Sequence record: PV029541
DNA length: 64,000 nucleotides
Source: Escherichia phage PBM-2
Direction: 5' to 3' (one strand)
Shown here: positions 1 to 54,339 of the stretch, one piece after another
Position numbering within the stretch: position 1 is the stretch's first letter
Layout: each line of letters begins with the position of its first letter
Translations under genes and position numbers: made by a program
Notes under the pieces: model-generated
Database searches by the model: none
Told to the model about the DNA's origin: nothing
The model's input: only the letters and a program-made list of their open reading frames with translations

Positions 1-143
1 GTGGCTGGGGCTACACCCTTACACTCAACCATCCCCCCCGGTATGTTGACGGTGTAGCCACTACCCTACCCCACCTTACACGTTACACATGCTCCGCATG
101 TTATGGACATGTCGTCCTATCATCAACTATTGGAGCTATCATC

Positions 144-35940: not shown

Positions 35941-35975
35941 AAATTAAAGCCCCTCTAATGAGGGGCTTTTTCATT
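35941..35975. terminator. bidirectional intrinsic terminator between convergent genes (approx. coords)
   Basis: 8-bp stem aaagcccct/aggggcttt flanked by an A-run on one side and a T-run on the other; lies between a plus-strand gene end and the vRNAP stop. Confidence 0.55.
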
Positions 35976-38900
35976 TAGTTAGCTAGATTGAGCCAAGGGT
36001 TAAGGTTATGGGCACGAAGTCCCTGACCGAAGCCCCAGGAGTAACCGAGATTGCCTTGTGCAGCAATACTGAAGATGTTGTCCTGAATAGGTAAACCAAC
36101 ATTACCAAACATGGTAGGAGTTGGAGCCAACATAGCCATAGCTGCGTGTACCGGGTTGTTACGAATCATGGATACTGCAATTTTTGCAGAACGAATCTTA
36201 AAATTATAGAACCACATAAGACCAACACTTTCCATATACCCACGGAAGCGACCAGGCAGACGGTCATAGTTAATGAACTCTTCCGTTACACGTCCAAGTG
36301 CTTCTTCACGAGTCTTACCTTTACGCTGAGTCAAATCATCATAGATGATTGCTTTAGCAATAAAGTCAGAGTACTCAACCGTCTTCTGGATACCCTGGAA
36401 TAAAGCAGTATCCTTGGTGATAAGGGCATAACGTCCAGCATTACGTACAGACTTAGGTAACTTATCAGCCAGTTTATCCATGTATTCGTGAAGTTTACCT
36501 TCAGTAATCAGGATGTCATCTCGTCCAATACCAGCATCTGCAATTGAAGAAAACTCACCAGCTTCTAACAGAGGCCAGATACTCATACGCTTATGACTAT
36601 CAGTGATGGACTGAATTTCAGCCTTAAGCTTACGAATCTGGTTCGGGTTAGTAGCTGCACGTAATTCTGCTTCTGCATCTACCTGACGCAGACGAGATTT
36701 CAGGTACTGGTTAATCTCAGCAGTCTTCTGTGGAATGCTCTTAGCAATGTTCTTAACAGGTACACCACGACCAACCATCTGGTAAAGGTTAGCCAGGAAG
36801 TTAACAGCAGGAACAACTACTGATTTAACTACAATCAGAGTCTTAGCTTCTTTAACTAAGTTTTGAACCAGGTTCTCACCACCCATTACATACTTATAAG
36901 CACGGTTGCCGAATACACCCAACATAGCTTTCTTGAAGGTATCCAGTGTTTCTGGTGACCAACGAGAATTGCCAGACCAGGCATCACCTACGGAAGCTGC
37001 ACGATAGCCCAGTGCATCATTCAGCATGTCACGACGTACCCACAACTCACCAGGACCAAACAGACTTTCTGCTTTCTGACGAGTTTCACTGTTCATCAGC
37101 TTAAGGGCATCAGCAGTTACTGGGTCCAGTTTAGAACCAAGAAGGTTAACGTACTGTGACTTGTTAGAGGCAGACATTTTAATGTCGTTTTCATACATGC
37201 TATGCAGGTTCTCAATCAGCATATCGTTAAAACGCTGAGCCTTAGCTTCCTCTACCTGACGACCACGCCATACACCGATTGCACGAGCGAGATGGTTCTC
37301 ACCCTCAATGTGCTTCAGCATGTTAGGGTCAATAGATTGCTCATAAGCAACCACATTGCCTTTATCATCATATACAGGCAGCAGTGGTTCATTACCACGT
37401 TCACCGCGAGCCAGTGCTTTAGTGATACGGTCTACAGAAGGCTTGTCAGTGATACGACCAGCTACCATTGTACCCATCGTAAAGCCTGTACCAAGGTCTA
37501 CACCACCAGCAGTATTGCGAACGTTCTGTAAGATACCTTGCGAGAATGGAGCCTGTGCCTGTACCGGTGCAAAGTAGTAGCTACGTGCTGGACCACGATT
37601 AGCAGAGCTACCCTGATAAGTACCCAGACGTACATAGGACTTCTCAATCAAATCAGCAAACTGACTATCTTCAGCAACAATCAAGTTAACACCCTGTTTA
37701 GTCTCACCAGGAATATACCCTTTGTACTGGTTCAGAGTTGCACGAGTATCAGATTTGGCTTTAGCCATTTCATCTTTACGCTGACCAACCAGATAAGAAG
37801 TAGCGAAGTCCATGCCTTCAATCTCTGTCTGAGCCAGTGAAGATAACATCTCACGGTCAGTCTTACTCATTGCTTCCAGTGCATACAGAGTAATCAGTTT
37901 ATCCAGTTGAGCTACATCTACAGTAGAACGTGCAGCCTGTCGTTCACCCAGCATACGAGAGATTGCAGTAGCATTACGCAGCAAGTTATTACCAACTGTG
38001 CCATTAATCATGTACTGAGCCAGTTGCTTAGATTTACGGCTAATCAAAGGCCAGTTACGTCCTGCTTGTTTCTGCAAATCTGCTTCCAGCTTATTCACTT
38101 CACGGTCAACAATCTTTTGGTCAGTCAGCAAGTCACGAATTTCACCCAGAGACATAGTGTCACGCAGAACAGCTAAGTCGGTTTTACCCATACCGGTATG
38201 CATTGCTTTCCACTCATCATTAGTAAGCTTACGGCTGAACTTAGATGCAATAGTGGTAGGCAAATGTTCACGGAACTGCTGACGGTCAGCCTGTACCTGT
38301 GCACGCACTGCTTTAATCAAATCATATACAGAAGCATTGCTCTTAGTACGACCAGTTAAGTCATTAACCAGGTCATGGAAAGGTTGCCATACCTTACCCT
38401 GGTTCATTGCAGCCATAACACCCTCAGCTACGATTGCACCATTTTTCTCTGTAGCAATAGCAGCTATTAGTTGTGCAGCATGAGCAGCACCTTTAACCAA
38501 CGGGTTCTTGGTATTAGCTGCAACTTCACGAGCACCCTCTAAAGCACGGGTAGACAGTACATCAATAGAATCCACCAGATACTGGTTAGCACGGTCGATA
38601 GCATTACCACTAGGAGTAGCAATGGAATCATAGAAGGACTGCGCATTGAGACTCGTCTGCATGATTGTCTGAGCCAGTGCATCCATACCTTCCTGTACGT
38701 TGGTAGCTTTAGTATCTCCTGCTACACGAGCATTCAGACTAGCCATTGCAGCAGTACCGATGTTAGTCAGCATTGCATCAGCGGTATTGCCAGATTTCTT
38801 GTCTACTTTCATAACAGGAATGTCAGCCAGTACTTTACGCACTTCTTCACTTACCATTGCCAGACCAACAAAGGTAGGCAGTAAGGAAGAACGGCCTTGT

Positions 38901-41900
38901 GCATCAAACTCAATGTTGTTAGCACCCATGATGGTATCGAACTTCTGCTGTGCATAGTAACGGTCAGCAGGGTTAGTACTATCTGGGTCAGCCATGAATG
39001 ACTCAACGGTCAGGTTCTTAGTAACATGTGTGTAGTATTCCTGTGCACGAGCCAGAGCAGCAGGATTAATAGCAGCTTCAGTAGCCAGTGCAGCAACAAT
39101 GTTAGTAAAGAGACGTTGTTCCTGCATATTCATAGTGAAGCCATGAGCCTGAACATCACGAGTTACTTTAGTCGCATTAACCACTGCATCAGAGAACTTA
39201 CCTTTACGAATTACTTGCTGTACTGGTTCAGAACCAATGTAGTCAGTAATCAGTTTATCGAAGGTTTTCCCTAGCTCTTCCAGACGAGTATTGTCACCAT
39301 ACGTTTTGTTATGGAACAGAGTAGTATCTTTGGCTACAGCAGCAGTAGGAGCTTGCCCACGCATAACTACGGACGAGTTAAACAGTAAGCCAGAGAACAT
39401 ATCATCTGCATTAGCTGGTGCTTTCTTACGCCCAAATACCAGACGCTTGATTGCTTCATATACAGCCTGAACCATAGTCTTCAGTGCAGTGGTTTTCTTC
39501 TGCTTACTAATCAGTTCACGGTTAGTTAAACCCCATGCCATGTACTCATTCAGTGCAGCAGCTTTAGCCATTGCTGGCTCAATGAAGCCATTAGATAGAT
39601 GACCGTTAATAGTATTAAGAGCATCTGCATATGCTTCCCGAACTGCCGGGGATTCATCCTTAACATCCAGAGCACGGAACTGGTTCATCAGGTCTTCAAT
39701 GTTCTGGACCGCTTCATTAGGAGTACCCTCATAGTGAGCCAGTACAGATTCAAAAGTAGAAGCATGCACCAATTCATGAACCAGAGTCTCTAAGGAAGGG
39801 GTAACTAAGTAGATGGTCTTATCTTCAAAGTTAGTCCAACCATACGCATTACCAGCTTCAGCAGCTTCAATATCTTCTGGTGCTGGGCGAGTAATATTCT
39901 TCTCAATAGCATAAGCATCCAGTTGGGAAGGTGTACCGTAAACAACCTTATAATCTTTAGCAGCAAGGGATTTCTGTACTTCTTTCAGTACTGCTTGCTG
40001 TTCCGGAGACATCTCTTTAGCCAGCTTAGAGATAGCAGTATTAGACAGTAGGCGTACACCAGACTTCAGTACACGACCAACCTGTTCCATTGCTGGCACT
40101 TCTTTCACTGGTTCTACTTTAGCAGCACGTACTGCATCACGACGTTTGTTTAATTCAGCATCGAACAGTTCATTTAGCTTAGCTACTTGTTGGTCTACGG
40201 TCAGACCTTCCAGAGAGATTTTACCGTTGTTCACATAAGGAGCACCAACAGCAGCCATCTGGTCAACAGTAGTCTGTACCTGGTTCATTACTTTGTGACG
40301 AATATCTACACCCAGAGCAATATTACGCAGGTTACGTTCAATCTGTTCAGCACCAACACGTAACAGGTCATCGGTAGCACCTTCACGCTGGTCATATTCC
40401 AGAGCAGATTTAGCGATAGCCTGTTTGGTTTCATCAGATAGTTTGCTGAAGTCTACGTTCTTCATGAACTTAGTAAAAGACTCATAAACATTCTTGATAG
40501 GGTTACCCTGCCAGGAAGTGTATACAGCCTCGTTAGCTTTACGACTTGCATCAGTGATGTTGTCGATACCAATGTTCATACCATCAAAGATTTTCAGGGT
40601 ATTCTTCGGAGCACCTTTCATAGTAGAAAGGGTCTGCATCATCATGCCATCACCAGTGCCAATGGTCATAAATGGAATACCTGCAACGCCTGCCTGAGAA
40701 GGAGCATAGATGCTCATTGGCACACGCATACGGTCATCTAAGTTGGTAGCCAGTACCTGGTTAGCAACATCAGTATTCTCACTACCAGCAATATAGAAAG
40801 TCTGTGAACCAGTCTCAATCATTGGAGCCAGTGGAGACAATGATTCCTGAATTTCATTCAGTTCTTTCTGTGTTAAGAAATCACCCTTCTTCCAGGTTGG
40901 GTCTTTTTCTTTTTCTGCCAGCTTAGCCTGTACTGCTTGTTGGAACATGTCTTGTAGAACCAAAGACTGAATCTGGGTAGCCTTCTGCAAGTTCTCAGTA
41001 GAATGCATCAGACCTTCCCCAACAGTATTCCGGATACCAGTACGCATTGGTTCAACGAACAGGTGAAGCATGTTCTCTTGTAAGTTCTTCAGGGCATTAC
41101 CCGATACGGTAAACTTCTGAGGGTCTAACTTACCAGTCAGAGCACCTTCTACCTGTTGAATAGACAATTCACCTTTACGCATAACTGGAACATTACCAGT
41201 CAGTGCTTCCATAGAAGTAAGGAAAGTATCCAGCATAGCCTGAGCATCAGCCTCAGACGCAGCCTCCTTACCAAACATTGCCATAGCTGGGGAAATACTA
41301 GGGTCAGCAGCACGAGCTTGCAGAACATCACTGAAGCGTTCATAGATGGTATCAGTAATTGCACTAACCATCTTGCCAGCAATACCACGAGCACCTGAAC
41401 CATAGATGGTAATGGTCAGTGGGTTTTTAGCGATACCACGTTTTAGGTCCAGAGTACCGTCTTCATTCAGGTTAAAGTCTTTAATAAACAGGTCCATTAA
41501 CTTCTGAAGATGATTCATTTGGTTCATAACCGGAACGTTGTTACGGTAAGTAGTACGTAACTCATTAAGTGCTTGTTGCAGACCATTGGTAGATGCTTCA
41601 TACAGGTCAACACTGTCATCCTGTGAACGATGCTCATTCATAGTCTTACCAGCTTTACCGAAGAACAGACCACCTTTAGCAGTATTCTTAATCCAGTCTG
41701 AAGTGAACTTACCACCTGTCATTAATATCATTGCGTTGATTGGTCCGTTGGTTACACCATCGGCTTCAACGTACAGTGGGGTATTAAAGTTGGCACGGTC
41801 ATCACTGTTCAGGTAACGGGCATATTCCATAAGAGCCATGAGAGCTACGAATGATTTATCGCCACCCAAAGAAGTCTTCAGAATATCTACTGCATCAGCT

Positions 41901-44900
41901 GGTAAGTGGCCAGACTTATCAAACTCAACCATCATATCAACAGCAGGTTTCAGATTACCTTCCAGAGCTTTGGTCAGCTTTTCAGACATAGCTTCACGGG
42001 ACATATTATGTACCTTGATACCCAATGCCTGAGCCAGTCCTAGCTGGAAGTCAGAGAATGTTTGGCTGTTTTCATTACTCAAGTCAATAGTAGAGAAGGT
42101 TGGCAGAATTGCTTCACGAACCAGTTTACTGGATTGTGGGTTGTTCTTACCTAACATCTGCATACGACCTACACGGGTCATGTTGTAACCATAGTGAATA
42201 GGCGTATCCAGACCATTCTCCTGTTCCTGTAACTGGTTGATTACACCGAACAGGGAATCATATGCCATAGACACTGACAGGTTTTTACCCTCCAGTGACT
42301 TAGCAGTGTTCACGTTCAGCAGTTCAGGATTAAGAGTACCAGCACCCATCAGTTCCAGAATGTTGTCACGACCTAATGCTTCATAGAAGTTAACCATCGG
42401 CATGTGTACACGGAACTCGGTAGCCTGTTCTGCTTTAAGAGCAGCTTTCTGCTCTGGGGTATTCTTAACAGCAGGGTTACGTAACTGAGTTTGAGCCACG
42501 GAAGGAATATCATCACCAAAGTACATTTTCTCTTCTGGTTCTACGAGAACAGCTTCCTCGATAGCAGTAGGGAACTTGTTAATGGCATCGTTATCATCCA
42601 GCTTCTCAATGGTATACAGACCGACGGTCTTATTAGAGTCTGGGTCAATCTCAGACACATCAAGCATAGACTCTTTAACTTCACCCATCTCAATGAGAGA
42701 AGACAGAATCTCTGTAGCCATTGCCATTGGAATACCTTTGGTATAACCCAGTGGTGCATTAGGATTACGATTCAATCCCCAGTAAGATTCAATCTTTTGA
42801 GCCAGTGAGTTAGTAGCTTCAACCAGAGTCTGAGCATTCTCAAATTCAGCCAGGATACCTTCAGGTAACAAGGATGCTTCTACTCCAGTAATAGCAGCTA
42901 CATCTTTCATGTCTTTAACAGCAGCATTCTGTGTAGCAGTCAGTCGCCATTGCAGACCAGCAAGTACAGCAGTCTCTAACAACTGGTCATTGAACTTAAA
43001 GGTGTCTCCGTCTTTCTCTACGATATTAAGTAACTTACCACCTACCCAACGGTTAGCCTCTGTGCCTTCTGCAAAGCGTTTACCAACGTTCTTATTAGCA
43101 AGAAACTTAGCCAGACGATCAGACAGAGTAGTCTTCAGAGTTTCACCAAAGCCCATTAAGTCCTGATAACGCTTAATCACATCACTTGTGAGAGCGTTAT
43201 TTTCTTTTTGAGTGAATGCTTCAAAGCGTGCAGTAGAAGACAGTGCTTGCTTAATATCAGTCAAAGGGGATTCAGAACCAATGGTGCGAGACTTAGGTTC
43301 TTCCGGCAGGGTAAATGATTTCAGGAACTGGTTCGGTGTCTTGTCATTGTTATAGACAGGGAAAACTGTTTCCATTTCCGTTTTAGTTTCAGCTACTTTT
43401 TGAGTGGTATCCTCATTGGTGAGGGTAGCATCTACTGTTTCAGACTTAGTAGTAGAGACTTCTTCTGCTTTTGAACTAGCCTCTTTAACAGGAACAGTCT
43501 TATTTTCTACCACTGGTTTAGCTTTAGGCTGTACAGTAGTAGTAGTAGTCTCTTGCGCTGGTGCAGGAGTTTCATCAACCTGATTCACTGGTTCATTGGT
43601 CTGTTGAGACTGAGTGGCATCAAGACCACCTTGACGGAACTCTTTAACTACCTGGGCAGCAGGCTTGTCCAGACGTGAATCTAATGGAGTAACCTTCACA
43701 TGAGAAACATTAAGCTCCGGGTAAGCCGTAGCAAGTGCGTTAGCAATATCAGCTACGGTTTTGGCCTCCAGTCCTACTTGCTGGGCAAACTTAACCGACT
43801 TGGTATCATACGGATTGACACCAAGACCAGTACGACTACGTACCCATTCACGGGAGGGAGTAAGAGCCTGATAATGGACAGACTTATTCTTATCCGCATT
43901 CCCAGAAATCAGATGCTCATTCAACGCTCCGACCTTATTCTGCATGTGCTGGGCGAACTTCATAAAGTCGTCGAGGTAAGCGGAAGCCAAATCGAAGTTA
44001 CCAGAGTTGTACGCAGAACGAATGCGTTTAGCATGTTGCAACGCAGAGTACTGACCTTCATTAGAACGAGACTCGTCGGTTTTAATCTGTTTACTAACAA
44101 TGTCTTGAGGACGTAAGCCTAGTTCTTCTGCTTTAGCGTCAAATTCTCGTGCTCCTTGCAATAGAGCAGCAGCAGATTGCAGGGCAGCACGCTGACGATT
44201 CCCCAGTGTAATCTTACCTTCACTTGCATGTTTCAGAACCATGTTCACTGAGTCTGCATCCAGTACTTCTGGAGACATATCAGCAGCCATAGCAATGTTG
44301 TTTGCTTGGGCTTGGTTAGCTTCTTCGGTAGCTTTCAGTTTACCTGCTTCAGCCTGTTCCTGAATCATAGAATGGATGGCACGGAATGCACGAAGTACCT
44401 TTGGTGTATTCTGAACGTTAGCCATCAGGCCGGAGAACTGGTCAACAATATTAGCAGCAGGAGAACCCTGTTCCAGATTAGCTAAAGCACCAGGATCACG
44501 GTTAATGAAGCTATCCATAGACATGATGTTGTCATACATCTGGATTGCAGCTTCCATTTGAACGTTAGGGTCTTCAGTAGTATTAACCAGGTCTGCCATC
44601 TTCTGAATAGCTTCCACACGGTTAGTGGAACCAGAAACAGCTTCACGGATTGTAGGACTAGCTTGCTCCAGTTCTACTGGGTCAAACTTCATTGCCTGAG
44701 TTAAGTCAGCAGCATACTGAGTAGCAGCAGCTTTCTCTTCAGGAGAAATGTCCATTGCATCTACTGCTTCCTGTACAGTTGCTTGTGCTTGTTCTGCTTG
44801 AGCAGTAGCTTCTTGTGCAGCAGCATTAACCGTAGCATCTGATACAGGGGATGCTTGCTCATTACGCTTAGCAACTTCTTCGCCACGCTGAACCAGGATG

Positions 44901-46330
44901 TTAGTAATAGGAGAGGCAGCTTTTGCTAATGCACTACCAACCAGAGAAGCACCAGCCAGAGTAGTACGTAAAGCAGGCCCAGCAGAAGCACCAACAGCTT
45001 TAACAGTTGTACCTGGAGCCTGAGCAACACCAGCACTACCGAAGCCGTAGAGTGCACCAAGACCTGCTTGCTCACCGACACCTTTAAGCAAATCACGCTT
45101 AGCATCTACATTACCCTGAATTGCCTTGTTCTGTGCAAACTGACTTGTACCAGACTGAATACCTTCTTCTACTGTTTCACGTAGCATGTTAGAACCAGCA
45201 CCAGCCAGCGAACCTACCTTAAGTGGGTTAAGTTCAAATTTGGATACCAGAGGACCAGTAGCAGCAGCAACCGGAGCAGTTAAGCCAGCAGCAATGATAC
45301 CCGTTTCAGATGCAGTTTGGCGACGTGCTTCATCAGGAGATAAACCATCAGCGATATGCTGTTGATAAACAGGAGACTTACTTGCCAATTCTTGATGGGA
45401 CATCTTCATGATTTCGGAAGCAGTCTGTTGGTATGCACCACCAGCTTCCATACCACCAATTGCAATAGCAGGTGCAGCAACACGACCAGCAGACAATGCA
45501 ACCTGTGCAGGACGTGAACCTAACTCAGCAGCTAAGGTAATACCCTTAACAGCTTTATCACCACCTACCATTACTTTACCGAGTGCAGATACACCACGAA
45601 TTAATGGACCACCGGTAAAGAGAGAACCAACACCTTCACTCAGCCCATCAGTAGCAGCCATACCATTATCAAGCGTATTAGCAACAGAATCAAAAGCATC
45701 ACGACCAATACGAGACAGAGAGGCAACCAAACTGCTCTCTCCATTTTTAATGTCTTCTTCGTAGAGTTTCTGGTTCTTTTGTGCAGAAATCTGGTTCTGA
45801 TTCTGAACAACCTTACGGGTAGCATTCAGTGCGTCAGACTGTAGATTGTGTACCCCTTCATTCAGCCAATCCATCCCGGAAGCAATGGATGCCCCGGCAT
45901 TATCATTGACCAAACCCGTACCAAGAGCAGCAATGCCCCCAAGGGTATTAGCAACACCAAGACCAACACCAGAAAGAGTATCACCAAATGCTTCTGCGTT
46001 AGTACGTTGCTTAGATAAGTCCTGACGTACAACATCAGCAGCATTAGCTCGGCTATTAAGAATCTGTAGACCTTGCTCATTACCGTATTTATTAAGAATT
46101 TCTAATGGGGAGGCTTGAGTGAAATCTGCCTGAAGTGAACCTGGTTCGAATGCACCGATTCCAAGATTACCTACACGACCAGTTTGGAGATTGTAAGCAT
46201 TCTCTGGGGTTAATTGGAAAGGGCTTTGCCCTTGTGCAGCTTGCTTCTGAGAGGTTGCAGTAGAGACATCGACTTGCTTAGCATTAGTGATGCTGTCTGC
46301 GAAACCTGCCAGACGGTCAAATGTTGACAT
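35975..46330 (-). CDS. virion-encapsidated RNA polymerase (N4 gp50-like giant vRNAP)
   Basis: About 3450-aa ORF; central region has YVEADGVTNGP (motif A-like Asp) and KIFDGMNIGIDN (motif C-like Asp) as in N4 mini-vRNAP as I recall it; track start is TTG at 46348, ATG at 46330 has AGGAA RBS. Confidence 0.85.
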   Translation of the reverse strand: MSTFDRLAGFADSITNAKQVDVSTATSQKQAAQGQSPFQLTPENAYNLQTGRVGNLGIGAFEPGSLQADFTQASPLEILNKYGNEQGLQILNSRANAADVVRQDLSKQRTNAEAFGDTLSGVGLGVANTLGGIAALGTGLVNDNAGASIASGMDWLNEGVHNLQSDALNATRKVVQNQNQISAQKNQKLYEEDIKNGESSLVASLSRIGRDAFDSVANTLDNGMAATDGLSEGVGSLFTGGPLIRGVSALGKVMVGGDKAVKGITLAAELGSRPAQVALSAGRVAAPAIAIGGMEAGGAYQQTASEIMKMSHQELASKSPVYQQHIADGLSPDEARRQTASETGIIAAGLTAPVAAATGPLVSKFELNPLKVGSLAGAGSNMLRETVEEGIQSGTSQFAQNKAIQGNVDAKRDLLKGVGEQAGLGALYGFGSAGVAQAPGTTVKAVGASAGPALRTTLAGASLVGSALAKAASPITNILVQRGEEVAKRNEQASPVSDATVNAAAQEATAQAEQAQATVQEAVDAMDISPEEKAAATQYAADLTQAMKFDPVELEQASPTIREAVSGSTNRVEAIQKMADLVNTTEDPNVQMEAAIQMYDNIMSMDSFINRDPGALANLEQGSPAANIVDQFSGLMANVQNTPKVLRAFRAIHSMIQEQAEAGKLKATEEANQAQANNIAMAADMSPEVLDADSVNMVLKHASEGKITLGNRQRAALQSAAALLQGAREFDAKAEELGLRPQDIVSKQIKTDESRSNEGQYSALQHAKRIRSAYNSGNFDLASAYLDDFMKFAQHMQNKVGALNEHLISGNADKNKSVHYQALTPSREWVRSRTGLGVNPYDTKSVKFAQQVGLEAKTVADIANALATAYPELNVSHVKVTPLDSRLDKPAAQVVKEFRQGGLDATQSQQTNEPVNQVDETPAPAQETTTTTVQPKAKPVVENKTVPVKEASSKAEEVSTTKSETVDATLTNEDTTQKVAETKTEMETVFPVYNNDKTPNQFLKSFTLPEEPKSRTIGSESPLTDIKQALSSTARFEAFTQKENNALTSDVIKRYQDLMGFGETLKTTLSDRLAKFLANKNVGKRFAEGTEANRWVGGKLLNIVEKDGDTFKFNDQLLETAVLAGLQWRLTATQNAAVKDMKDVAAITGVEASLLPEGILAEFENAQTLVEATNSLAQKIESYWGLNRNPNAPLGYTKGIPMAMATEILSSLIEMGEVKESMLDVSEIDPDSNKTVGLYTIEKLDDNDAINKFPTAIEEAVLVEPEEKMYFGDDIPSVAQTQLRNPAVKNTPEQKAALKAEQATEFRVHMPMVNFYEALGRDNILELMGAGTLNPELLNVNTAKSLEGKNLSVSMAYDSLFGVINQLQEQENGLDTPIHYGYNMTRVGRMQMLGKNNPQSSKLVREAILPTFSTIDLSNENSQTFSDFQLGLAQALGIKVHNMSREAMSEKLTKALEGNLKPAVDMMVEFDKSGHLPADAVDILKTSLGGDKSFVALMALMEYARYLNSDDRANFNTPLYVEADGVTNGPINAMILMTGGKFTSDWIKNTAKGGLFFGKAGKTMNEHRSQDDSVDLYEASTNGLQQALNELRTTYRNNVPVMNQMNHLQKLMDLFIKDFNLNEDGTLDLKRGIAKNPLTITIYGSGARGIAGKMVSAITDTIYERFSDVLQARAADPSISPAMAMFGKEAASEADAQAMLDTFLTSMEALTGNVPVMRKGELSIQQVEGALTGKLDPQKFTVSGNALKNLQENMLHLFVEPMRTGIRNTVGEGLMHSTENLQKATQIQSLVLQDMFQQAVQAKLAEKEKDPTWKKGDFLTQKELNEIQESLSPLAPMIETGSQTFYIAGSENTDVANQVLATNLDDRMRVPMSIYAPSQAGVAGIPFMTIGTGDGMMMQTLSTMKGAPKNTLKIFDGMNIGIDNITDASRKANEAVYTSWQGNPIKNVYESFTKFMKNVDFSKLSDETKQAIAKSALEYDQREGATDDLLRVGAEQIERNLRNIALGVDIRHKVMNQVQTTVDQMAAVGAPYVNNGKISLEGLTVDQQVAKLNELFDAELNKRRDAVRAAKVEPVKEVPAMEQVGRVLKSGVRLLSNTAISKLAKEMSPEQQAVLKEVQKSLAAKDYKVVYGTPSQLDAYAIEKNITRPAPEDIEAAEAGNAYGWTNFEDKTIYLVTPSLETLVHELVHASTFESVLAHYEGTPNEAVQNIEDLMNQFRALDVKDESPAVREAYADALNTINGHLSNGFIEPAMAKAAALNEYMAWGLTNRELISKQKKTTALKTMVQAVYEAIKRLVFGRKKAPANADDMFSGLLFNSSVVMRGQAPTAAVAKDTTLFHNKTYGDNTRLEELGKTFDKLITDYIGSEPVQQVIRKGKFSDAVVNATKVTRDVQAHGFTMNMQEQRLFTNIVAALATEAAINPAALARAQEYYTHVTKNLTVESFMADPDSTNPADRYYAQQKFDTIMGANNIEFDAQGRSSLLPTFVGLAMVSEEVRKVLADIPVMKVDKKSGNTADAMLTNIGTAAMASLNARVAGDTKATNVQEGMDALAQTIMQTSLNAQSFYDSIATPSGNAIDRANQYLVDSIDVLSTRALEGAREVAANTKNPLVKGAAHAAQLIAAIATEKNGAIVAEGVMAAMNQGKVWQPFHDLVNDLTGRTKSNASVYDLIKAVRAQVQADRQQFREHLPTTIASKFSRKLTNDEWKAMHTGMGKTDLAVLRDTMSLGEIRDLLTDQKIVDREVNKLEADLQKQAGRNWPLISRKSKQLAQYMINGTVGNNLLRNATAISRMLGERQAARSTVDVAQLDKLITLYALEAMSKTDREMLSSLAQTEIEGMDFATSYLVGQRKDEMAKAKSDTRATLNQYKGYIPGETKQGVNLIVAEDSQFADLIEKSYVRLGTYQGSSANRGPARSYYFAPVQAQAPFSQGILQNVRNTAGGVDLGTGFTMGTMVAGRITDKPSVDRITKALARGERGNEPLLPVYDDKGNVVAYEQSIDPNMLKHIEGENHLARAIGVWRGRQVEEAKAQRFNDMLIENLHSMYENDIKMSASNKSQYVNLLGSKLDPVTADALKLMNSETRQKAESLFGPGELWVRRDMLNDALGYRAASVGDAWSGNSRWSPETLDTFKKAMLGVFGNRAYKYVMGGENLVQNLVKEAKTLIVVKSVVVPAVNFLANLYQMVGRGVPVKNIAKSIPQKTAEINQYLKSRLRQVDAEAELRAATNPNQIRKLKAEIQSITDSHKRMSIWPLLEAGEFSSIADAGIGRDDILITEGKLHEYMDKLADKLPKSVRNAGRYALITKDTALFQGIQKTVEYSDFIAKAIIYDDLTQRKGKTREEALGRVTEEFINYDRLPGRFRGYMESVGLMWFYNFKIRSAKIAVSMIRNNPVHAAMAMLAPTPTMFGNVGLPIQDNIFSIAAQGNLGYSWGFGQGLRAHNLNPWLNLAN

Positions 46331-46393: not shown

Positions 46394-46418
46394 AGAAAAA
46401 AGCCCCGAAGGGCTTTTG
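46394..46418 (-). terminator. intrinsic terminator upstream of vRNAP gene (approx. coords)
   Basis: Minus-strand RNA would read stem aaagccc/gggcttt then UUUUUUC. Confidence 0.5.
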
Positions 46419-46424
46419 TTAGTA

Positions 46425-48389
46425 TTACCGATTTTGTCTTGGTTGCATATACTCAGGCAAACCCTGTGCCTGACGTAAATACCGTGCAGCACGTTCTTCA
46501 TCTTCCTTGGCTCGTGCTCTGTCCATACTAGCCTGTGACCGGAAACCTCTTGGAGCCAGGTTAGATGGGTCTGCTTGAACTTGTGCTTGAGCAGCTTGTA
46601 GCATTGCAGCAGCTTTAGTAACAGCTTCCTGACGAGCAGGCAACAATGCAGTAAGTCCTGTTTGTCCGGTGTTAATCTTGTTCTGGGTATTTGTCAGTGC
46701 AGCTACAGCAGCATCATAAGCAGTCTGTGCTGCCTGAATATTCTGCATGGCTTGAGCACGACCAAGGTTACGCACACTGCCTTCCAGTGGTTCACCACGT
46801 TGTACACCCTCAATTAACTGATCTACCAGACGGTCATTAAGACGCATACCATTACCAGCTTCATTGGTAATGAATGGGTTAACCGCATCAATAGCACGGC
46901 TAATGTAACCTTCAGGTACACCAGTCTGTGCACGTTGCATAACAGCAGCAGCCATAGCTGGAGACATATTCCCACGTTGAGAAATATCAGTTAATCGGTT
47001 AAGTACCCAGTTACGGTCAGCACCCTTAAAGTCACCATCCAGTAGACGATTAGCAATCTCACCTACTGGAGTATTATCGGTGACAGTACCCAGGAAATCG
47101 GTATTAAGGCTACCGGTATTATCCTGCATAGAGCGAGTACCAATCATACCCTGAGCCAAGGTAGATACTGCCTGATTTCCCTGATTATTCTGAAGCAGAG
47201 AGAATGGGTCAGCCCCTACTTCAGCTTGGGCAATAACAGGTTTAATCTGTTCCCAAGTCATATCCTTATAAGCACCTGGGGTAGAGTTAGGTAAAGCAGC
47301 CCAGGTATCTTTAAGGTTACCATTCTTACGAGCCTCAAAAATAGCCTTACCAATCTTCTCCTGGTTCTCAGGGGAAAGAGGTTGGTTCTGCCAATCTGAA
47401 CCAAGAACTTTGGGGGCAAAGTCTTTCAAGGTAGCTTGGTTAATCTGAAATGCACCAACAGGGGAAGCACCCTGGTTCGATTTCATACCATCCTGGTGTT
47501 TAATTACATCACCAATACTCATTTGAGTAATAGGAGTAGATGTACCAGCAAACTGATAAGTAACATCGTAAGGTGAACCCTGACGAGTACCAGCAGTACC
47601 AGGAGCAGACGTAGCACCTACACCATTACCGTAAACACCCGGGTAAGCATTAGCCAGTAATCCCTGCAAGCGTGCCTGTGCAACTGGAGACAGGTTCTTA
47701 CTGTATGCTTCTGCCAACAGACGGGCATCATTAGGGTTCTCAGCACCACGGGTAATCTGTGCCATTACACCCATAGCTGCCTGACTATCGGCATCATTAC
47801 GTTGAGCAACACCCAAATCAAAACGATTGCTCGCCTGATTAATAGCAGCACTACCCTGTCCTTGTAAACTACCTAACAATTCTAACTGTTGGTCAGCTGG
47901 GAGCGTAGATAATGCCTCACGAGTCTGACCCAATGCAGTATTAATACGATTCTGGTCACCAGACTGATAAGCCTCAGACAATAAACGAATAGCCGGAGAA
48001 GCATTATCTAGTGCTGAGTTAATATCCTTTAAGCGACCAAAGCGATATGCAATGTAGTCATTGGTTCCCTGCTGTCCTTGTTGAGTCAGCAGTGTACCTG
48101 CTCGCTCATCCAGATTCTGGAGAGTACGCTGGTTTACCAATGAAGGGTCAACCCCCTGAAACAGTGCACCTGATGCCAAAGCATTACGGTACTCAGTAGG
48201 ATCTTGATACTGCATAGCATTCATCATGACGGCATTGCCAGCCTCCTGCTTGGCAGCGTTCTGGAAATTACCCAGTGCATCACTTAAGCCAGAGGTGGCG
48301 TTACCAATCATGTTGCCAAATGTGCGAATGCTGTCACCTACTCCAGAGAAGTTAGGTGCATCAACATTACGCCATGTAATTTGAGCCAT
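46425..48389 (-). CDS. putative virion protein (654 aa)
   Basis: ORF track; Gln/Ala/Asn-rich; located in virion module next to vRNAP. Confidence 0.45.
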   Translation of the reverse strand: MAQITWRNVDAPNFSGVGDSIRTFGNMIGNATSGLSDALGNFQNAAKQEAGNAVMMNAMQYQDPTEYRNALASGALFQGVDPSLVNQRTLQNLDERAGTLLTQQGQQGTNDYIAYRFGRLKDINSALDNASPAIRLLSEAYQSGDQNRINTALGQTREALSTLPADQQLELLGSLQGQGSAAINQASNRFDLGVAQRNDADSQAAMGVMAQITRGAENPNDARLLAEAYSKNLSPVAQARLQGLLANAYPGVYGNGVGATSAPGTAGTRQGSPYDVTYQFAGTSTPITQMSIGDVIKHQDGMKSNQGASPVGAFQINQATLKDFAPKVLGSDWQNQPLSPENQEKIGKAIFEARKNGNLKDTWAALPNSTPGAYKDMTWEQIKPVIAQAEVGADPFSLLQNNQGNQAVSTLAQGMIGTRSMQDNTGSLNTDFLGTVTDNTPVGEIANRLLDGDFKGADRNWVLNRLTDISQRGNMSPAMAAAVMQRAQTGVPEGYISRAIDAVNPFITNEAGNGMRLNDRLVDQLIEGVQRGEPLEGSVRNLGRAQAMQNIQAAQTAYDAAVAALTNTQNKINTGQTGLTALLPARQEAVTKAAAMLQAAQAQVQADPSNLAPRGFRSQASMDRARAKEDEERAARYLRQAQGLPEYMQPRQNR

Positions 48390-48401: not shown

Positions 48402-48866
48402 TTAACGGGTTAATTTATTAGCTGCAATATAAGCATCAGCAGTAGACTGGTCACGGTTCTCTGCTGTAGCACGACTACGAGCACGATCTTCCAGTGCAGT
48501 GTTATAAGACTTAATCTGGTTATTCAGGTTAGTGTTAGTAACACTCTTAGTAAAGTTCAACTGGTCTTTGGCTAACTTATTAGCCTGGAAACCACTGTAG
48601 ATATTAGCTAATGAACCAAGTGCACCCAGTCCTAATTGGAAGGTAGGTACATTCAATCCCAACTGATCAGCTGAACCAGACAGGAAAGAAGTAGGGGAGG
48701 CTACTCCTGTATTTGCCCCCATACCAATAGTTGCACCTGGGTTATAGTTCATAGCCGGGGTATTAAAGTTCTGATTGTTATTAGACATCCAAGACATAGC
48801 AGCTGGCTGTGGAGTTGGGTTGCCTGTTAAGAATGACAAATCCATGGGGATTCTCCTGTTAAACAA
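48402..48866 (-). CDS. putative virion protein (154 aa)
   Basis: ORF track; overlaps downstream gene start by 8 nt. Confidence 0.4.
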   Translation of the reverse strand: MFNRRIPMDLSFLTGNPTPQPAAMSWMSNNNQNFNTPAMNYNPGATIGMGANTGVASPTSFLSGSADQLGLNVPTFQLGLGALGSLANIYSGFQANKLAKDQLNFTKSVTNTNLNNQIKSYNTALEDRARSRATAENRDQSTADAYIAANKLTR

Positions 48867-51513
48867 GGTCAGTATTAAGAGTCATATCAGAGTAGTTGCC
48901 AACCATGTCTAAAGACAAGTCAGCTATATCTGAACCAGTCATGAGAGTACGTGACAAGAATGAATCCAACGACTCCATTGACACGAATTGCATGGGGTCA
49001 ATCACACCCTGTCCAGCAGTACCGAACATCTCTTCATACTGCTTATTGATTGCCATCATATCAGTATTGTACTGCTGCATTACACTCTCTGCTTTCTGAA
49101 TAGTAGCAGCCGTGGATGCATTAATATACTGACTAATGCCATTACCCACTGAACTGGTAAGTTGCATGATGTTTTGAGCATTCATCATTTCACCAGCTAA
49201 AGAGGATAAGGATGTACCAGTAGACAAAGCAGTACCAACGTTCATGGCTACCATTGAGGCAATAGCAGCAATGATAAAACCTAGCTTATCACCGAACAGT
49301 GAAGTAGATACTTTAGTAATAATGGATACCAGAATCATTGCAGCTATGGCGTTTGCTACAGCACCAACTATTACAGCAGCTAATCCAACAAAACCAAGTG
49401 ATGCACCGACTGCACCGTATGCCCCAAGTATACCTGCACCACCAGCACCTGCTGTAAATACAGAGACAACTACAGCTACCACTACAACAACAATTTTAAA
49501 TGCCCCAGTCTGATACCACTTCTGCTTAACCTTCTTATATGAGTTCATCACTAAGTAGGAGCAGGCAGTGGATAACTGAGTGCTACGAACCAGTGACATT
49601 GAACGGTAGATATTGGTGTGCAGTGGAATAATGAATCCACTCTCCTCTGCATCACCCATTGCTTCGGCAACATCAATGTGCACTGACTTATTTTTATATA
49701 CCCTGTTGTTGTGATTTAGACCCAGTACCCTAAGTTTACGATAGGTATTATTACCATCCTGCCAAAGCAACTCGTATTCCTGCATTGAATAGAATGTGTA
49801 TGTTACCTCAAGTTTCTTAGCAGAACCGGAGTTGGAAGCTGTCCTTATGTTCTTACGAGTAAGGGTTATATCTCCTGCATACCTGGCTCGAAGTTGCCCC
49901 TGCTTAGCACCAGACCATGCTTGACCTGAATGGGTAGTTTCAGATACATAGTTCCAGCCAATAGTCATGTCGTACTTGTACTGCTTATTACTATGCACCC
50001 TAAACTCTCGCTTAGGTATAACTGGGTATTCTGGCAGTGGTGGAGGTGTTCCAATAATATGCCCTTCAGTCCTGTTCCACCATTCCACATATGCGTCAAC
50101 TGCATCATTTGCTGCCTGATAGCCTGCAATCACTGCTTCCAGTGTTGGGTAGGTTGGGTCAGGTGGGAATGCTTCAGTAGCCATCTGAAAGAAACGATAG
50201 ATGTATTCCTTAGCACTATCCTCGGGGGTATTAAGGGATACACCAAATGAACCATAGATGTACTGAATATCACCTATGTCATCATTCTTCTTAAGCTCTG
50301 TGACTACTTTATCAATTTTTCCACCAGTAGCTTTATAAAGGGCTTTCTTACAGTGTGGGTAGATTGGGTCATTCTCTACCCATTGCTTATCATTTCTGAT
50401 TGGAATGAATGGGTAGAATCGGTTATCAGTAGCTTCAGTCTCGAACAAAGAATCCAGTGCAACGTTACCGGAGTTCTGCTTATAAATAAGCATTTTAGGT
50501 GTACTAACAGCAGTCATCTCGGTATCAGTACGGGTAGTCTGGGATGAGTACTTACGAACCAGTGTCTCTGTGGTTGTAGTGATTGTATCTGTACGAGTAA
50601 CACCTCCACCTATATCAACCACATTAGTAGTTACAGAAGTACTGGATTGAATCTCACCAAATTTTGTATGAGTCATTACCCTGTCAGATACAACTACAGT
50701 CACATCATCAGGTTTCTCAGTGAATCCTCTACGATAAACTTTAACGTAAGAGTTCCAGTTATCCACACTTGGTTCTGTGACAGTACTGTCTTCATCCGGT
50801 CTGCCATCAGAGTAAACAGAATGAGTATGTATAGTCTTAGTAAGATTGGTTGTGTTAGCCGTCGTATCACTTGAGACGGTAGTCCATAACAAAGTGGAAG
50901 GTAAGTCATCCTCATCATCATAGACAGTAGTCGGTCCTACTACCGGAGGATTAGTAGAAGGGGACTTATAGAATGAGTAATCAGCATAGAGATATAAAGC
51001 ACCTGGTTCAAAGTTAGTAGGTGTGAATGTAATAGTAGAGCCCCCATCTAAGGAGGTCATAGTGATTTCATTAGTATCTTCATCAATATCTATGTCGAAT
51101 CGTTCCATGATTCGACTTGGAGCATTCTCATAAAGATACTGGTCACACCATTGCTCAAAGTCAGCAAAGCCAATCTCTGCTGCCTGAACATAGACTGATT
51201 CACCAGCAGGGGGTGTAATTTGACCCTCTATAACGGTAGGGTCAATCTTAGCCAATACACCCAATGAAGAACCAGCCATACCAACTACTGAATCATAGTG
51301 GTTCTTACTCCAGCTGGAGAACAGTCGCATACGAATACCTGGCCCATTCAGATAACTATCAGAGATAGTATCTGCCATAGTGAATCCTGTATTGGAAACA
51401 ATATTACCTATAACTACAGTCTTCATATAGTTAGGGCGTTTATGTATATCCCCTGCCATGTTATAGACAGAGGATGCTACGTATACTTTGGTCTTCCCAC
51501 TGAATAAGCCCAT
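48859..51513 (-). CDS. large virion protein with multi-helix transmembrane block, putative ejection or channel protein
   Basis: 884 aa; residues about 640-760 form a roughly 100-aa Gly/Ala/Val-rich hydrophobic block (FKIVVVVVAVVVSVF...GAVANAIAAMILVSIITKV...FIIAAIASMVAM). Confidence 0.45.
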   Translation of the reverse strand: MGLFSGKTKVYVASSVYNMAGDIHKRPNYMKTVVIGNIVSNTGFTMADTISDSYLNGPGIRMRLFSSWSKNHYDSVVGMAGSSLGVLAKIDPTVIEGQITPPAGESVYVQAAEIGFADFEQWCDQYLYENAPSRIMERFDIDIDEDTNEITMTSLDGGSTITFTPTNFEPGALYLYADYSFYKSPSTNPPVVGPTTVYDDEDDLPSTLLWTTVSSDTTANTTNLTKTIHTHSVYSDGRPDEDSTVTEPSVDNWNSYVKVYRRGFTEKPDDVTVVVSDRVMTHTKFGEIQSSTSVTTNVVDIGGGVTRTDTITTTTETLVRKYSSQTTRTDTEMTAVSTPKMLIYKQNSGNVALDSLFETEATDNRFYPFIPIRNDKQWVENDPIYPHCKKALYKATGGKIDKVVTELKKNDDIGDIQYIYGSFGVSLNTPEDSAKEYIYRFFQMATEAFPPDPTYPTLEAVIAGYQAANDAVDAYVEWWNRTEGHIIGTPPPLPEYPVIPKREFRVHSNKQYKYDMTIGWNYVSETTHSGQAWSGAKQGQLRARYAGDITLTRKNIRTASNSGSAKKLEVTYTFYSMQEYELLWQDGNNTYRKLRVLGLNHNNRVYKNKSVHIDVAEAMGDAEESGFIIPLHTNIYRSMSLVRSTQLSTACSYLVMNSYKKVKQKWYQTGAFKIVVVVVAVVVSVFTAGAGGAGILGAYGAVGASLGFVGLAAVIVGAVANAIAAMILVSIITKVSTSLFGDKLGFIIAAIASMVAMNVGTALSTGTSLSSLAGEMMNAQNIMQLTSSVGNGISQYINASTAATIQKAESVMQQYNTDMMAINKQYEEMFGTAGQGVIDPMQFVSMESLDSFLSRTLMTGSDIADLSLDMVGNYSDMTLNTDLV

Positions 51514-51514
51514 A

Positions 51515-52357
51515 TTAGTTCAGCCCGTTGTTAGACTTCAGCTTGGTCAGAATGGTGTCAATACTTGCGTTAGTGAAACCATTTGGTGGATTCAAGCCTT
51601 CATCAATAGTCTTCTGAGTAATCCATGCATCAGTAAACAGCTTAGATGCTTTAACCTCTGCATCACGTTGATAAGAAGTAATCTGTTGTGAGTACAACTC
51701 TTTCTGTTTACCTACAGAACCAGTAACAGTAGCTCCATCACTACGGGTATCAAGTGTCTGTGCACGTTGTGCTTCAGTCTGCTCAGTAAGCAATTTAAGC
51801 TGTTGAGGTAACATCTGACTAACATTAAACAATGCAGCACAGTATGTTTCAGACTCAGTAGCAATCTTCATCTTAGTAAGAGCATACTCACTCTTAGCAG
51901 ACAGTGCCTGAATCTTAGCCAGCACAAACTGTGCTTTAGACGTTGCCAGTTGAACACGAGCAGTAACTGCCTGAATCTGTGCCATAGCAGCAGCCCAGTA
52001 TGCCTGGTCACGACCAAGTAAGAACTGAACAGCATTGCTCATGCAAGATTCCATCATAGCAATGTATGCTTTGGTATATTCACCACCGGTAATACGGTTA
52101 GCTTTAAACTCAGCTTTCAGATGATTGTGTGCAGATTCCATTAATGCATCAAACGTACCACTACCACCAACTTCACGGGTAGTGAGTGATTCATTGGATA
52201 TTTTATCAATAGCACCAAAGATTGGGGAAGCATCCCCACCAGGGATATCCCATTCGGGGCCAGTCATATCAACATCAGGAAGGGTAAAGTCATCACCCTT
52301 AGTTAACTCTTCTAGGAGTCGGTTAGCTTCTACCTCAGCAGAACAAGACATAATCAT
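51515..52357 (-). CDS. putative virion structural protein (280 aa)
   Basis: ORF track; coiled-coil-like Ala/Gln-rich middle; stop adjacent to start of next gene. Confidence 0.4.
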
Positions 52358-53136: not shown

Positions 53137-54339
53137 TTACAGAGGAGCAACAGTCTTAATCATAGCCAGACGTTCTGGGCGTTTAACCAGGATACCGTAG
53201 TACCACTTGATAGAACTGAAGCCAGTTTCACCATACGGGTCATTACGGTCAGCAGTTTCTTTACCAGGCATCTTAGTCATGATGGAGAACTTAACAGACT
53301 TACCATCAGTCTGGAAGCCAATGGTAGAGAAGGAGTCATCACCAACTACCAGCATCGGGAATACGTCGTAGTGTTCCTGACCACCAACCATAGTAGAACG
53401 ATAGCCTGGGTTAGAAGTAGCCTGAGCACCAGCACCTGCCCAATGCAGCATCTCAGGAACCTGGATAATACGGAACTTGTCGATACAACCAACTTCACCA
53501 TTCATCAGAGTACCGGCATCAGCATAGTGCTGAATTTCGATGAATGCTTTGTTACCGAACAGATCTTTCATCGCTTTCAGTTCTGGAACCAATTCAGAAC
53601 CAACGTACATTACACGAGTACCACCAAGTACTTTGGTATCAGTCAGTTTAGAACCAGTGATAATAGTAGTCTGAGTCGGGGTACGGTTCTCAGTAAGAAT
53701 CTGGTCAAGACGCATCAGGTTCTTATAAGAAACTACAGACGGAGTAGAACCATCACCGGTGATGGTAGCATCAGAAGTAGCAGCACCTGCATACAATACA
53801 GTACCAGCAGCAGCAAGCAGGTCTTTCTGGAGAACAGCTTCAGTCAACTGTACAGCACCGTTCATCAGTTCACGAGACAGGTGTTCTTTCAGCTGGTCAT
53901 CAGAATCAAAGTCCAGAGACTCTTGAGTAAATTCATAGAAGAAACCGAACTTATGGATGGAGCCTTCACGAGACAGACGGGTAAAGCCTACACGGTTAAC
54001 ACGACCACCATTCTCTGTCAGCAGAGGCAGTTTGGAAGTGATGTTACCTACGTCTTTAGAAGAACCATACAGGTTCCCATTAACAATGGTAGCACCATTA
54101 GCATCAATGCCCTGGTCGTTAATGTTCTTATCGTCGAGCAGTGGAACGTACTCATACACCTTAACAGTCTTACCATAGTTCTTAGGCATGTTAATGGTGT
54201 TAGCCAGTGGCATGAAGTACTGGTCTTTACGAGACTGAATAATAGCTTTCTTCAGCCAGTAAAAGGTATTCATCTGATCGGAACCAGCACCATCAATGCT
54301 AGATTTCTGACCGTCAATTGGAGCGTTATAGTTTAACAT
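53137..54339 (-). CDS. putative major capsid protein
   Basis: 400 aa (N4 major capsid protein is about this size), AGGA RBS, position between scaffold and portal candidates, structured hairpin downstream; synteny-based. Confidence 0.5.

Follow-up and report, generated by a model that had tools for sequence, protein, structure and literature searches.

The 884-amino-acid (aa) protein encoded between the virion RNA polymerase (vRNAP) and major capsid genes of Escherichia phage PBM-2 is, with a probability of roughly 85%, the tail plug (gatekeeper) of a G7C-like N4-family podovirus and the orthologue of N4 gp53 and DEV gp74. A preliminary description of the sequence had drawn attention to a long Gly/Ala/Val-rich hydrophobic block in this protein and proposed it as the envelope-spanning conduit for the phage genome and the vRNAP. 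Since the protein is an orthologue of the known N4 plug, the block is real but already explained. The role as a plug is already known from work on N4, where gp53 is the monomeric tail plug (Bellis et al., Nat Commun 2026, PMC13434306; PDB 9YFT). Six short helices from its residues 29–56 and 670–716 make up a 'hydrophobic knot' which corks the dodecameric gp54 tail tube; the tube:sheath:plug symmetry mismatch is 12:6:1 (PMC13434306).

Results

Genomic context

We analysed a 64-kb stretch (64,000 nucleotides) of the PBM-2 genome (record PV029541), referred to as the window. The genes needed for the argument are the following:

51515..52357, minus strand: gp54-like tail tube protein, 280 aa; would form the dodecameric tube closed by the plug
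48859..51513, minus strand: probable gp53-like tail plug gene, 884 aa; ATG at 51513, TAA at 48859–48861
48402..48845, minus strand: gp52-like ejection protein, 147 aa, ATG at 48845; putative outer-membrane complex, stored in the tail lumen (function from N4)
46425..48389, minus strand: gp51-like ejection protein, 654 aa; putative periplasmic tunnel with a T7 gp15-like protomer (function from N4)
35975..46330, minus strand: virion RNA polymerase (gp50-like), about 3451 aa, ATG at 46330; assigned from the open reading frame list, the start codon context and N4 synteny

The start codon of the 884-aa reading frame lies one base past the stop of the upstream tail-tube gene. As the preliminary description had correctly placed it, the gene is flanked by the vRNAP gene and the major capsid gene (53137–54339). 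The order portal, gp58, gp57, capsid, gp55, gp54, gp53, gp52, gp51 and vRNAP is identical in N4. Sequence searches agreed with these assignments. The 280-aa protein matched the 'Tail protein' of PDB entry 9D80_C (E 8.6e-149), N4 Gp54 (9LC0/9YF4/9YFT; E 3e-124) and the DEV tail tube gp75 (E 5e-19). The 147-aa protein, whose ATG is preceded by AGGAG, matched the '16.5 kDa protein' of PDB 9YF4 (E 1.8e-45) and the DEV 'N4 gp52-like' protein 8VXQ (E 8e-4). Residues 1–357 of the 654-aa protein matched the '66 kDa protein' of PDB 11MN (E 4e-130), and the protein also matched phrog_6126, a virion structural protein. This 654-aa protein had been put forward as an adjacent partner of the 884-aa protein. 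As the gp51 orthologue, it does belong to the true conduit, but it is not adjacent, with the 147-aa gene lying in between.

Relationship to N4 gp53

Compared with the solved N4 Gp53 (9YFT_FA) by phmmer, the 884-aa protein matched over residues 1–883 (E=0, 1067 bits). The DEV 'N4 gp53-like protein' (9ZE4_M) was matched with E 1.4e-18, and the core fold is common to the 884-aa protein and the solved plug proteins. Identity to the annotated N4 gp53 (EF056009) was 54.7% by tblastn and 56% in a global alignment. Residues 1–883 are also covered by phrog_2220, an unnamed PHROG family without assigned function, and searches of Pfam and NCBIfam returned no match for the protein. Matches in BFVD to maturation proteins of ssRNA phages were weak (E about 1e-4, probability <0.5) and judged not significant.

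The preliminary description had taken the product for a virion protein belonging to the ejection apparatus, and both points are supported by relatives. N4 gp53 was detected by LC-MS and built into cryo-EM density (C1 map) as the tail plug (PMC13434306). In the near relative Moo19, mass spectrometry of virions identified gp70, a protein described as resembling N4 gp53, and weak density is visible at the tail tip (PMC11654681). In addition, the tail plug gp74 of DEV has been solved (PDB 9ZE4 chain M; mBio 2026, PMC12892993).

Mapping the protein onto N4 gp53, together with an AF2 model built from a 38-sequence alignment, gave the following layout:

51346..51429, minus strand: residues 29–56, predicted N-terminal share of the hydrophobic knot; aligns to N4 gp53 29–56, AF2 helices 29–39 and 46–55
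50494..50901, minus strand: residues ~205–340, predicted beta-feather outside the tube; AF2 strands, N4 counterpart
49354..49494, minus strand: residues 674–720, first half of the hydrophobic block, equivalent to the N4 gp53 cork segment 670–716; residue mapping, charge-free run, invariant glycines
49189..49353, minus strand: residues 721–775, second half of the hydrophobic block; Kyte-Doolittle (KD) peaks at 718–732 and 748–756, presumed in the tail lumen
48862..49188, minus strand: residues 776–884, polar/amphipathic C-terminal tail; low-confidence AF2 helices

The knot residues of N4 thus align to residues 29–56 and 674–720 of the PBM-2 protein. Identity to N4 is highest around these segments (82% for residues 1–60, 77% for 601–669, 68% for 670–716 and 75% for 717–775), whereas the exposed core and the feather are least N4-like (about 40% over 61–340 and about 39% in the feather). 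To judge from the alignment, this pattern fits a conserved cork with a variable handle. The feather was modelled as four Thr/Ser-rich strands of 24–29 residues (211–234, 241–266, 272–300 and 306–334; pLDDT about 85–93). N4 gp53 carries such a 'feather-shaped beta-sheet protrusion', while DEV gp74 is without one (PMC13434306). Over residues 666–884, the pLDDT was 29–57 (41–57 for 666–730 and <55 for 721–775), and the knot is therefore not independently reproduced for the PBM-2 protein. In the C-terminal tail, the low-confidence helices span residues 802–830, 849–856 and 860–879, and E847, R855, T856 and G860 are invariant among the 38 aligned sequences. What is shown for the PBM-2 protein itself comprises its orthology, the synteny, the layout of its domains and the conserved block.

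The gene is split in pSb-1 and Bp4, which might have indicated a separately expressed cork domain. We rejected this idea: each split goes back to the loss of one base, the codon differing between the two phages (604 and 367), and is most likely a sequencing error.

The hydrophobic block

The block described earlier was confirmed. It comprises about residues 673–765, that is roughly 95 aa, 51% of which are Ala, Val or Gly (A 19%, V 17% and G 14% for residues 673–776). The KD mean over 19 residues (KD19) is at least 1.6 at centres 675–689, 704–732 and 748–756, with a maximum of 2.59, and never exceeds 1.17 within residues 1–650. Residues 674–720, where KD reaches 2.5, form a run of 47 consecutive residues without D, E, K, R, H, N or Q, and in the whole block of ~100 residues only K673, K734, D742, K743 and E775 interrupt the apolar sequence. 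Its 90-aa mean KD of 1.84 was the highest among all stop-free frames of the window (runner-up: 1.32). Among 26 homologues with <50% identity, the mean KD was 1.94 for 674–720 and 1.00 for 721–775, and G694, G697, G703, G707, G717 and N721 were invariant in 38/38 aligned sequences. Invariant glycines inside the block are as expected of tightly packed short helices. With its hydrophobicity kept in diverged homologues, the block is evidently no chance feature.

Small-residue packing motifs had also been reported for the block, and this claim held in part. GxxG was enriched (6 versus 2.0 expected; 0.5% of shuffles), and the 24 small-xxx-small motifs represent only a modest excess over composition (18.4 ± 2.6 in shuffles, 2.2% of which reached 24). 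Strict GxxxG, the 'glycine zipper', was not enriched within the block (2 observed versus 1.9 expected from shuffles).

Such a block could be read as four to five transmembrane (TM) helices, in which case the protein, perhaps together with the 654-aa protein, would be the conduit by which DNA and vRNAP cross the envelope. No other segment of the locus comes close to the block in hydrophobicity: three to four of its segments exceed a KD19 of 1.6, a value that the gp51-like and gp52-like proteins reach nowhere. Accordingly labelled relatives are found in GenBank ('4 transmembrane helical domains containing protein', 'membrane protein' and 'TMhelix containing protein'). For N4, however, this reading is already contradicted. 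The N4 orthologue is monomeric, lies outside the tube and at its mouth, and is still present on DNA-emptied particles (PMC13434306), whereas an ejected conduit protein should leave. The authors of that study point out that the empty particles had lost their DNA in vitro and that real infection may differ (PMC13434306). In N4, the trans-envelope conduit consists of gp52, gp51 and the vRNAP N-terminus, and it is gp51 and gp52, not gp53, for which bilayer channel activity, channel-like assemblies (a decameric hollow one among them) and loss from empty particles were shown. Besides, a channel of ~35 Å would probably be too wide for one chain of about four helices. The first three putative segments of the PBM-2 block abut, no loop being longer than three residues, and a stretch of 23 residues (689–710) contains 10 Gly, which suits short interwoven helices over a canonical TM bundle. 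We therefore consider a conduit formed by the 884-aa protein very improbable. That the plug is present once, has the geometry of a cork and stays on emptied particles would, by homology, carry over to PBM-2 from the 56%-identical N4 orthologue. The expectation that the block is helical rather than a buried beta core agrees with the short-helix knot of N4 gp53, which corresponds to the first half of the block.

Plug holder and lumenal segment

The N4 plug is gripped by domains D9–D10 of the sheath/receptor-binding protein gp65, together with gp64 (PMC13434306). Searches by tblastn (E<=1) of the window and of PBM-3 1–40000 revealed no homologue of N4 gp64 or gp65, neither of which gave a match at E<=0.1. 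Instead, PBM-2 has two tailspikes, one of the gp66 type with 1215 aa and one with 892 aa. Of N4 gp66, the first 77 residues alone match the 1215-aa tailspike (E 7e-8), and a BLASTP comparison of gp65 with this tailspike gave E 9 only. Since homologues of gp64 and gp65 are absent from the sequences searched, the gating partner and the trigger must differ from those of N4.

The N4 knot accounts for only 47 of the ~95 hydrophobic residues. The N4 gp53 model ends at residue 724, the last ~160 residues being 'lost in the tail lumen' (PMC13434306). One reading of this remainder adds to the plug model without replacing it: after uncorking, the knot and residues 721–765 would enter the outer membrane and pin the tail tip or seed the gp52 complex. 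About half of the block plus 110 C-terminal residues are beyond what the N4 model accounts for, and these parts include the well-conserved stretch 717–775 as well as the four invariant residues of the tail. An apolar segment of ~95 residues would presumably be unstable in water once uncorked. G7C-type phages are thought to drive their tail tip through the O-antigen layer by processive tailspikes (PMC10743462), and at such a tip the plug would probably be the first part of the virion to meet the outer membrane. The missing gp64 and gp65 point in the same direction, and in gp65-less G7C-like phages the plug might itself sense the outer membrane, its apolar block (above all residues 721–765, together with the conserved tail) inserting, anchoring the tip and nucleating the gp52 pore. 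If true, the plug would also act as a 'pilot', the first component of the ejectosome to insert into a membrane, but we regard this proposal as unlikely. Insertion after uncorking in general is quite unlikely as well: the N4 plug was seen re-seated in emptied particles, and the authors proposed that it stays tethered and rebinds via the knot (PMC13434306). Furthermore, the conservation of residues 721–884 is equally explicable if they make contacts to gp52 or to the lumen of the tube.

Such contacts are central to another reading, according to which the lumenal residues 721–884 mainly serve assembly or docking. They would thread into the tube and organise ~12 copies of gp52, or help to close the tube after packaging, and would have no membrane role. 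The N4 lumen shows a poorly resolved double ring that was ascribed to the gp53 C-terminus and/or gp52 (PMC13434306). The N-termini of 12 gp52 copies are located in the adaptor lumen, with the remaining chains directed down the tail, and the gp53-like and gp52-like genes of PBM-2 are neighbours, separated by 13 nt. This explanation leaves the strong apolarity of the segment unaccounted for, AF2 provided no confident fold for 721–884, and we rate it as rather unlikely.

Discussion

The mechanism that we propose for PBM-2 follows the plug model. Residues 29–56 and 674–720 would fold into a compact knot of short helices, which, being Gly-rich and charge-free, would sit as a cork in the lumen of the tube. 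The remainder of the chain, i.e. the second hydrophobic half (721–765) followed by the tail to residue 884, would run up the lumen and share this storage space with the gp52-like ejection protein. In this state, the plug would hold the DNA and the ejection proteins within the particle. Engagement of the receptor, the likely trigger, would push the plug sideways. The gp52-like protein, the gp51-like protein and the vRNAP could then exit via the tube and build the trans-envelope channel.

The main practical value of this assignment is annotation. Dozens of Schitoviridae records label the protein as 'hypothetical protein', 'membrane protein' or 'TM-helix protein', for which the name tail plug (N4 gp53 family) can now be substituted. 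The case also calls for caution: of all virion proteins of this locus, the most hydrophobic one is most probably not the channel former, and it is the low-hydropathy homologues of gp51 and gp52 that match the N4 channel proteins.

Among known systems, N4 is the closest. The two plugs are of nearly the same length (885 aa in N4 versus 884 aa), are 56% identical from end to end and are encoded in the same slot between gp54 and gp52/gp51/gp50. Two N-terminal helices, the core, the beta-feather, the hydrophobic block and the tail at the C-terminus are present in both, and the knot residues align one to one. They differ in how they would be held: gp65 D9–D10 grips the plug of N4, whereas PBM-2 has two tailspikes and no gp64 or gp65 homologue was found in the window and PBM-3 1–40000. 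DEV gp74 is more distant (12% identity, 740 aa, no beta-feather) and is held by the gp56-gp55-gp54 receptor-binding fibre; DEV particles without gp56 lose their DNA.

The tail needle of P22-like podoviruses is a trimeric coiled coil. Like the plug, the needle of P22 (gp26) and Sf6 seals the tail channel once packaging is complete, and infection displaces or expels it, an analogy drawn by the authors of the DEV study, but it has neither sequence nor fold similarity to a monomeric plug with a hydrophobic cork.

With respect to the ejectosome of T7 (gp14/gp15/gp16), the N4 counterparts are gp52, gp51 and the gp50 N-terminal domain (NTD), the PBM-2 versions of which are encoded immediately downstream of the plug gene. 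For the 884-aa protein, we found no homology to or fold shared with known ejection proteins (T7 gp14/15/16-like; N4 gp52/gp51/gp50-NTD). Proteins of the T7-type ejectosome are ejected from the virion to make a pore in the outer membrane, a tunnel across the periplasm and a complex in the inner membrane, and it is a conduit of this kind that the preliminary description had envisaged. In contrast, the N4 plug orthologue is monomeric, lies outside the tube and is kept on emptied particles. Tape-measure proteins of siphoviruses, such as T5 pb2, are likewise virion proteins whose apolar helices reside in the tail lumen before infection.

The 884-aa protein is an orthologue of the N4 tail plug

The gene at 48859-51513 on the minus strand is a real open reading frame of 884 aa, running from an ATG at 51513, one base past the stop codon of the 280-aa gene upstream, to a TAA at 48859-48861. 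In a search of PDB sequences, its product matched 'Gp53' of 9YFT over residues 1-883 (E=0) and 'N4 gp53-like protein' of 9ZE4 (E 1.4e-18). Identity to the annotated gp53 of coliphage N4 (EF056009) was 54.7% over the full length using tblastn and 56% in a global alignment. Window and N4 have the gene order portal, gp58, gp57, capsid, gp55, gp54, gp53, gp52, gp51 and virion RNA polymerase (vRNAP) in common, and neighbouring products matched solved N4 proteins as listed below. Orthology, synteny and layout of the plug were established for PBM-2 itself.

Features around the plug gene, with matches to solved structures
54356-55576, minus strand: 406-aa gp57-like protein
Upstream of the plug gene: 280-aa ORF; solved N4 Gp54 tail tube (E 3e-124), 9D80_C 'Tail protein' (E 8.6e-149)
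48859-51513, minus strand: plug gene, 884 aa
48402-48866, minus strand: gp52-like gene, 147/154 aa; solved N4 16.5-kDa gp52 (E 1.8e-45)
46425-48389, minus strand: gp51-like gene, 654 aa; solved N4 66-kDa gp51 (E 4e-130)
46396-46417, minus strand: hairpin and T-run, putative terminator
35975-46330, minus strand: vRNAP gene

The plug gene is 100% identical in DNA to that of phage PBM-3 and 91-99.9% identical to those of other G7C-like phages (Gamaleyavirus; Schitoviridae, Enquatrovirinae). PBM-3 40000-8762 aligned with window 32760-64000 (99.994% identity, two gapped or mismatched positions) and PBM-3 402-1 with window 1-402, so the window crosses the start of the PBM-3 record in reverse orientation; arithmetic suggests a length difference of ~570 bp outside the segments compared. 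The records of Shigella phage pSb-1 and Escherichia phage Bp4 show the gene as two ORFs. Both carry a single-base deletion, at different codons (604 and 367), which most likely reflects sequencing error rather than a cork domain expressed separately.

Neighbouring genes

The 654-aa gene is not directly adjacent to the plug gene, as the preliminary description had it; the 147-aa gene lies in between. In a mechanical ORF list this gp52-like gene opens with TTG 48866, so that it overlaps the plug gene stop. ATG 48845, with AGGAG ahead of it, is probably the true start and gives 147 aa; this length agrees with the PBM-3 annotation, and the alignment with N4 gp52 begins at the same Met. A GC-rich hairpin with a T-run behind it (aaaagcccttcggggctttttt) lies between the stop of the gp51-like gene (46425) and the start of the vRNAP gene (46330). 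It resembles an intrinsic terminator, and as such might keep vRNAP expression below that of the structural genes upstream. In the gp51-like protein, residues 538-627 gave a weak match to the NCBIfam RipA NlpC/P60 model (E 5e-4, 19 bits versus a cutoff of 625) which, far under threshold, may be only compositional. Three PBM-3 annotations look wrong: vRNAP is called 'DNA polymerase', the portal is divided into two CDS, and the gp57-like protein carries the label 'tape measure protein' (also in phrog_2120), which is implausible because the phage is short-tailed.

The first half of the hydrophobic block aligns with the N4 cork

The strongly hydrophobic, Gly/Ala/Val-rich block from which the preliminary description started was borne out. 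Kyte-Doolittle hydropathy in a 19-residue window (KD19) peaked at 2.59 and exceeded 1.6 in windows centred on 675-689, 704-732 and 748-756; in residues 1-650 it stayed at or below 1.17. Ala, Val and Gly make up 19%, 17% and 14% of residues 673-776, and the 90-residue mean hydropathy (1.84) was the highest of all stop-free frames in the 64-kb window (second, 1.32). The proposed small-residue packing motifs held in part: small-xxx-small motifs were modestly in excess (24 versus 18.4 +/- 2.6 expected from composition) and GxxG was enriched (6 versus 2.0 expected; 6 reached in 0.5% of shuffles), whereas strict GxxxG was not enriched in the block. The GxxG enrichment arises because Gly recurs at every third residue in 689-710. 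This run (window 49444-49509, minus strand) comprises G689, 691, 692, 694, 697, 700, 703, 707 and 710, a periodicity unusual for a canonical transmembrane helix. The block is apolar also in 26 homologues with less than 50% identity, and G694, G697, G703, G707, G717 and N721 are invariant in 38 of 38 aligned sequences; judged from such comparisons, it is under selection.

In N4, gp53 residues 9-724 were modelled in a 3.6 A C1 tail-tip map, and the base of the tube is corked by six short helices, contributed by residues 29-56 and 670-716 and termed a 'hydrophobic knot' (Bellis et al., Nat Commun 2026, PMC13434306). By alignment, the knot falls on residues 29-56 and 674-720 of the PBM-2 plug, the latter being exactly the run free of D, E, K, R, H, N and Q found in the independent hydropathy scan. 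Identity to N4 (N4 numbering) was 82% for residues 1-60, about 40% for 61-340 (exposed core and feather), 77% for 601-669, 68% for 670-716 and 75% for 717-775, a pattern that would be expected of a conserved cork in a conserved tube with a variable external handle. An AlphaFold2 model built from 38 homologues, confident for residues ~10-665 and unreliable for 666-884, predicted a mixed alpha/beta core with four very long strands at 211-334.

A probable plug rather than a conduit

We consider the 884-aa protein to be the tail plug, and assign the sealing and displacement-release mechanism as a whole a probability of about 0.85. Copy number, position and retention would carry over from N4 and DEV, whose gp74 is a single-copy plug and homologue of gp53 (mBio 2026, PMC12892993). 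A single plug would seal the tube from inside through residues 29-56 and the first half of the hydrophobic block, its C-terminal third sharing the tail lumen with the gp52-like protein. Receptor engagement, the presumed trigger, would displace it, and the released gp52-like, gp51-like and vRNAP proteins would then build the channel. Two variants concern the part beyond the knot. That the uncorked apolar block, particularly its unexplained half 721-765, goes on to anchor in the outer membrane is unlikely; that residues 721-884 act solely in the lumen, to dock or organise gp52, is doubtful, if slightly less so.

The preliminary description had instead made this protein the envelope-spanning conduit. 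This is highly improbable, as stoichiometry, position and retention of the orthologue on empty particles all contradict it. In N4, a single gp65 sheath subunit grips the plug through its domains D9-D10 in a 12:6:1 mismatch, the plug is seen in both full and emptied particles, and the conduit is assigned to other proteins (PMC13434306). There is direct evidence for gp51 and gp52 as channel formers: twelve gp52 N-termini located in the tail lumen, and likewise a gp51 hairpin around the portal, are no longer seen once particles are empty; recombinant gp52 and gp51 both formed channels in planar bilayers; and truncated gp51 assembled into a hollow decameric tube whose protomer is T7 gp15-like (PMC13434306). 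The abstract of that paper names gp51 as the outer-membrane complex and gp52 as the periplasmic tunnel, whereas the Results section and the Fig. 6 and Fig. 8 legends name gp52 as the outer-membrane complex and gp51 as the T7 gp15-like periplasmic tunnel; we follow the body text. Judged by hydropathy only, neither the gp51-like nor the gp52-like protein looks membranous (KD19 maxima 0.72 and 1.14, versus 2.59 for the plug), hence the sequence-only reading chose the wrong protein.

The feature is real, and the function of the plug family is already published. An annotation gap persists: the plug has no Pfam or NCBIfam model, its PHROG family lacks a function name, and the GenBank label is 'hypothetical protein'.

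Plug retention compared with N4 and related phages

The adsorption apparatus consists of two tailspikes.

60351-63029, minus strand: 892-aa tailspike; N-terminus like those of G7C gp63.1 and the CBA120 tailspikes, C-terminus like an endosialidase chaperone domain
63214-64000, minus strand: 1215-aa gp66-type tailspike, cut by the window end

Only the first 77 residues of N4 gp66 matched the N-terminus of the 1215-aa tailspike (E 7e-8), and gp65 did not match this tailspike. No homologue of N4 gp64 or gp65 was found in the window and PBM-3 1-40000 (tblastn, E<=0.1).

For Moo19, like PBM-2 a member of the Enquatrovirinae, mass spectrometry of virions revealed the gp53-like gp70, and the tail tip shows weak density without assignment (PMC11654681). 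Unlike N4 gp53, the DEV plug has no feather; the gp56-gp55-gp54 receptor-binding fibre keeps it in place (PMC12892993). In N4 the sheath proteins gp64 and gp65 hold the plug; with no homologue of either in the window and PBM-3 1-40000, the N4-type plug holder is absent here, and uncorking must be coupled to receptor binding in another way. Processive tailspikes are thought to carry the tail tip of G7C-type phages through the O-antigen layer (PMC10743462), and we infer that the plug itself would thereby come onto the outer membrane.
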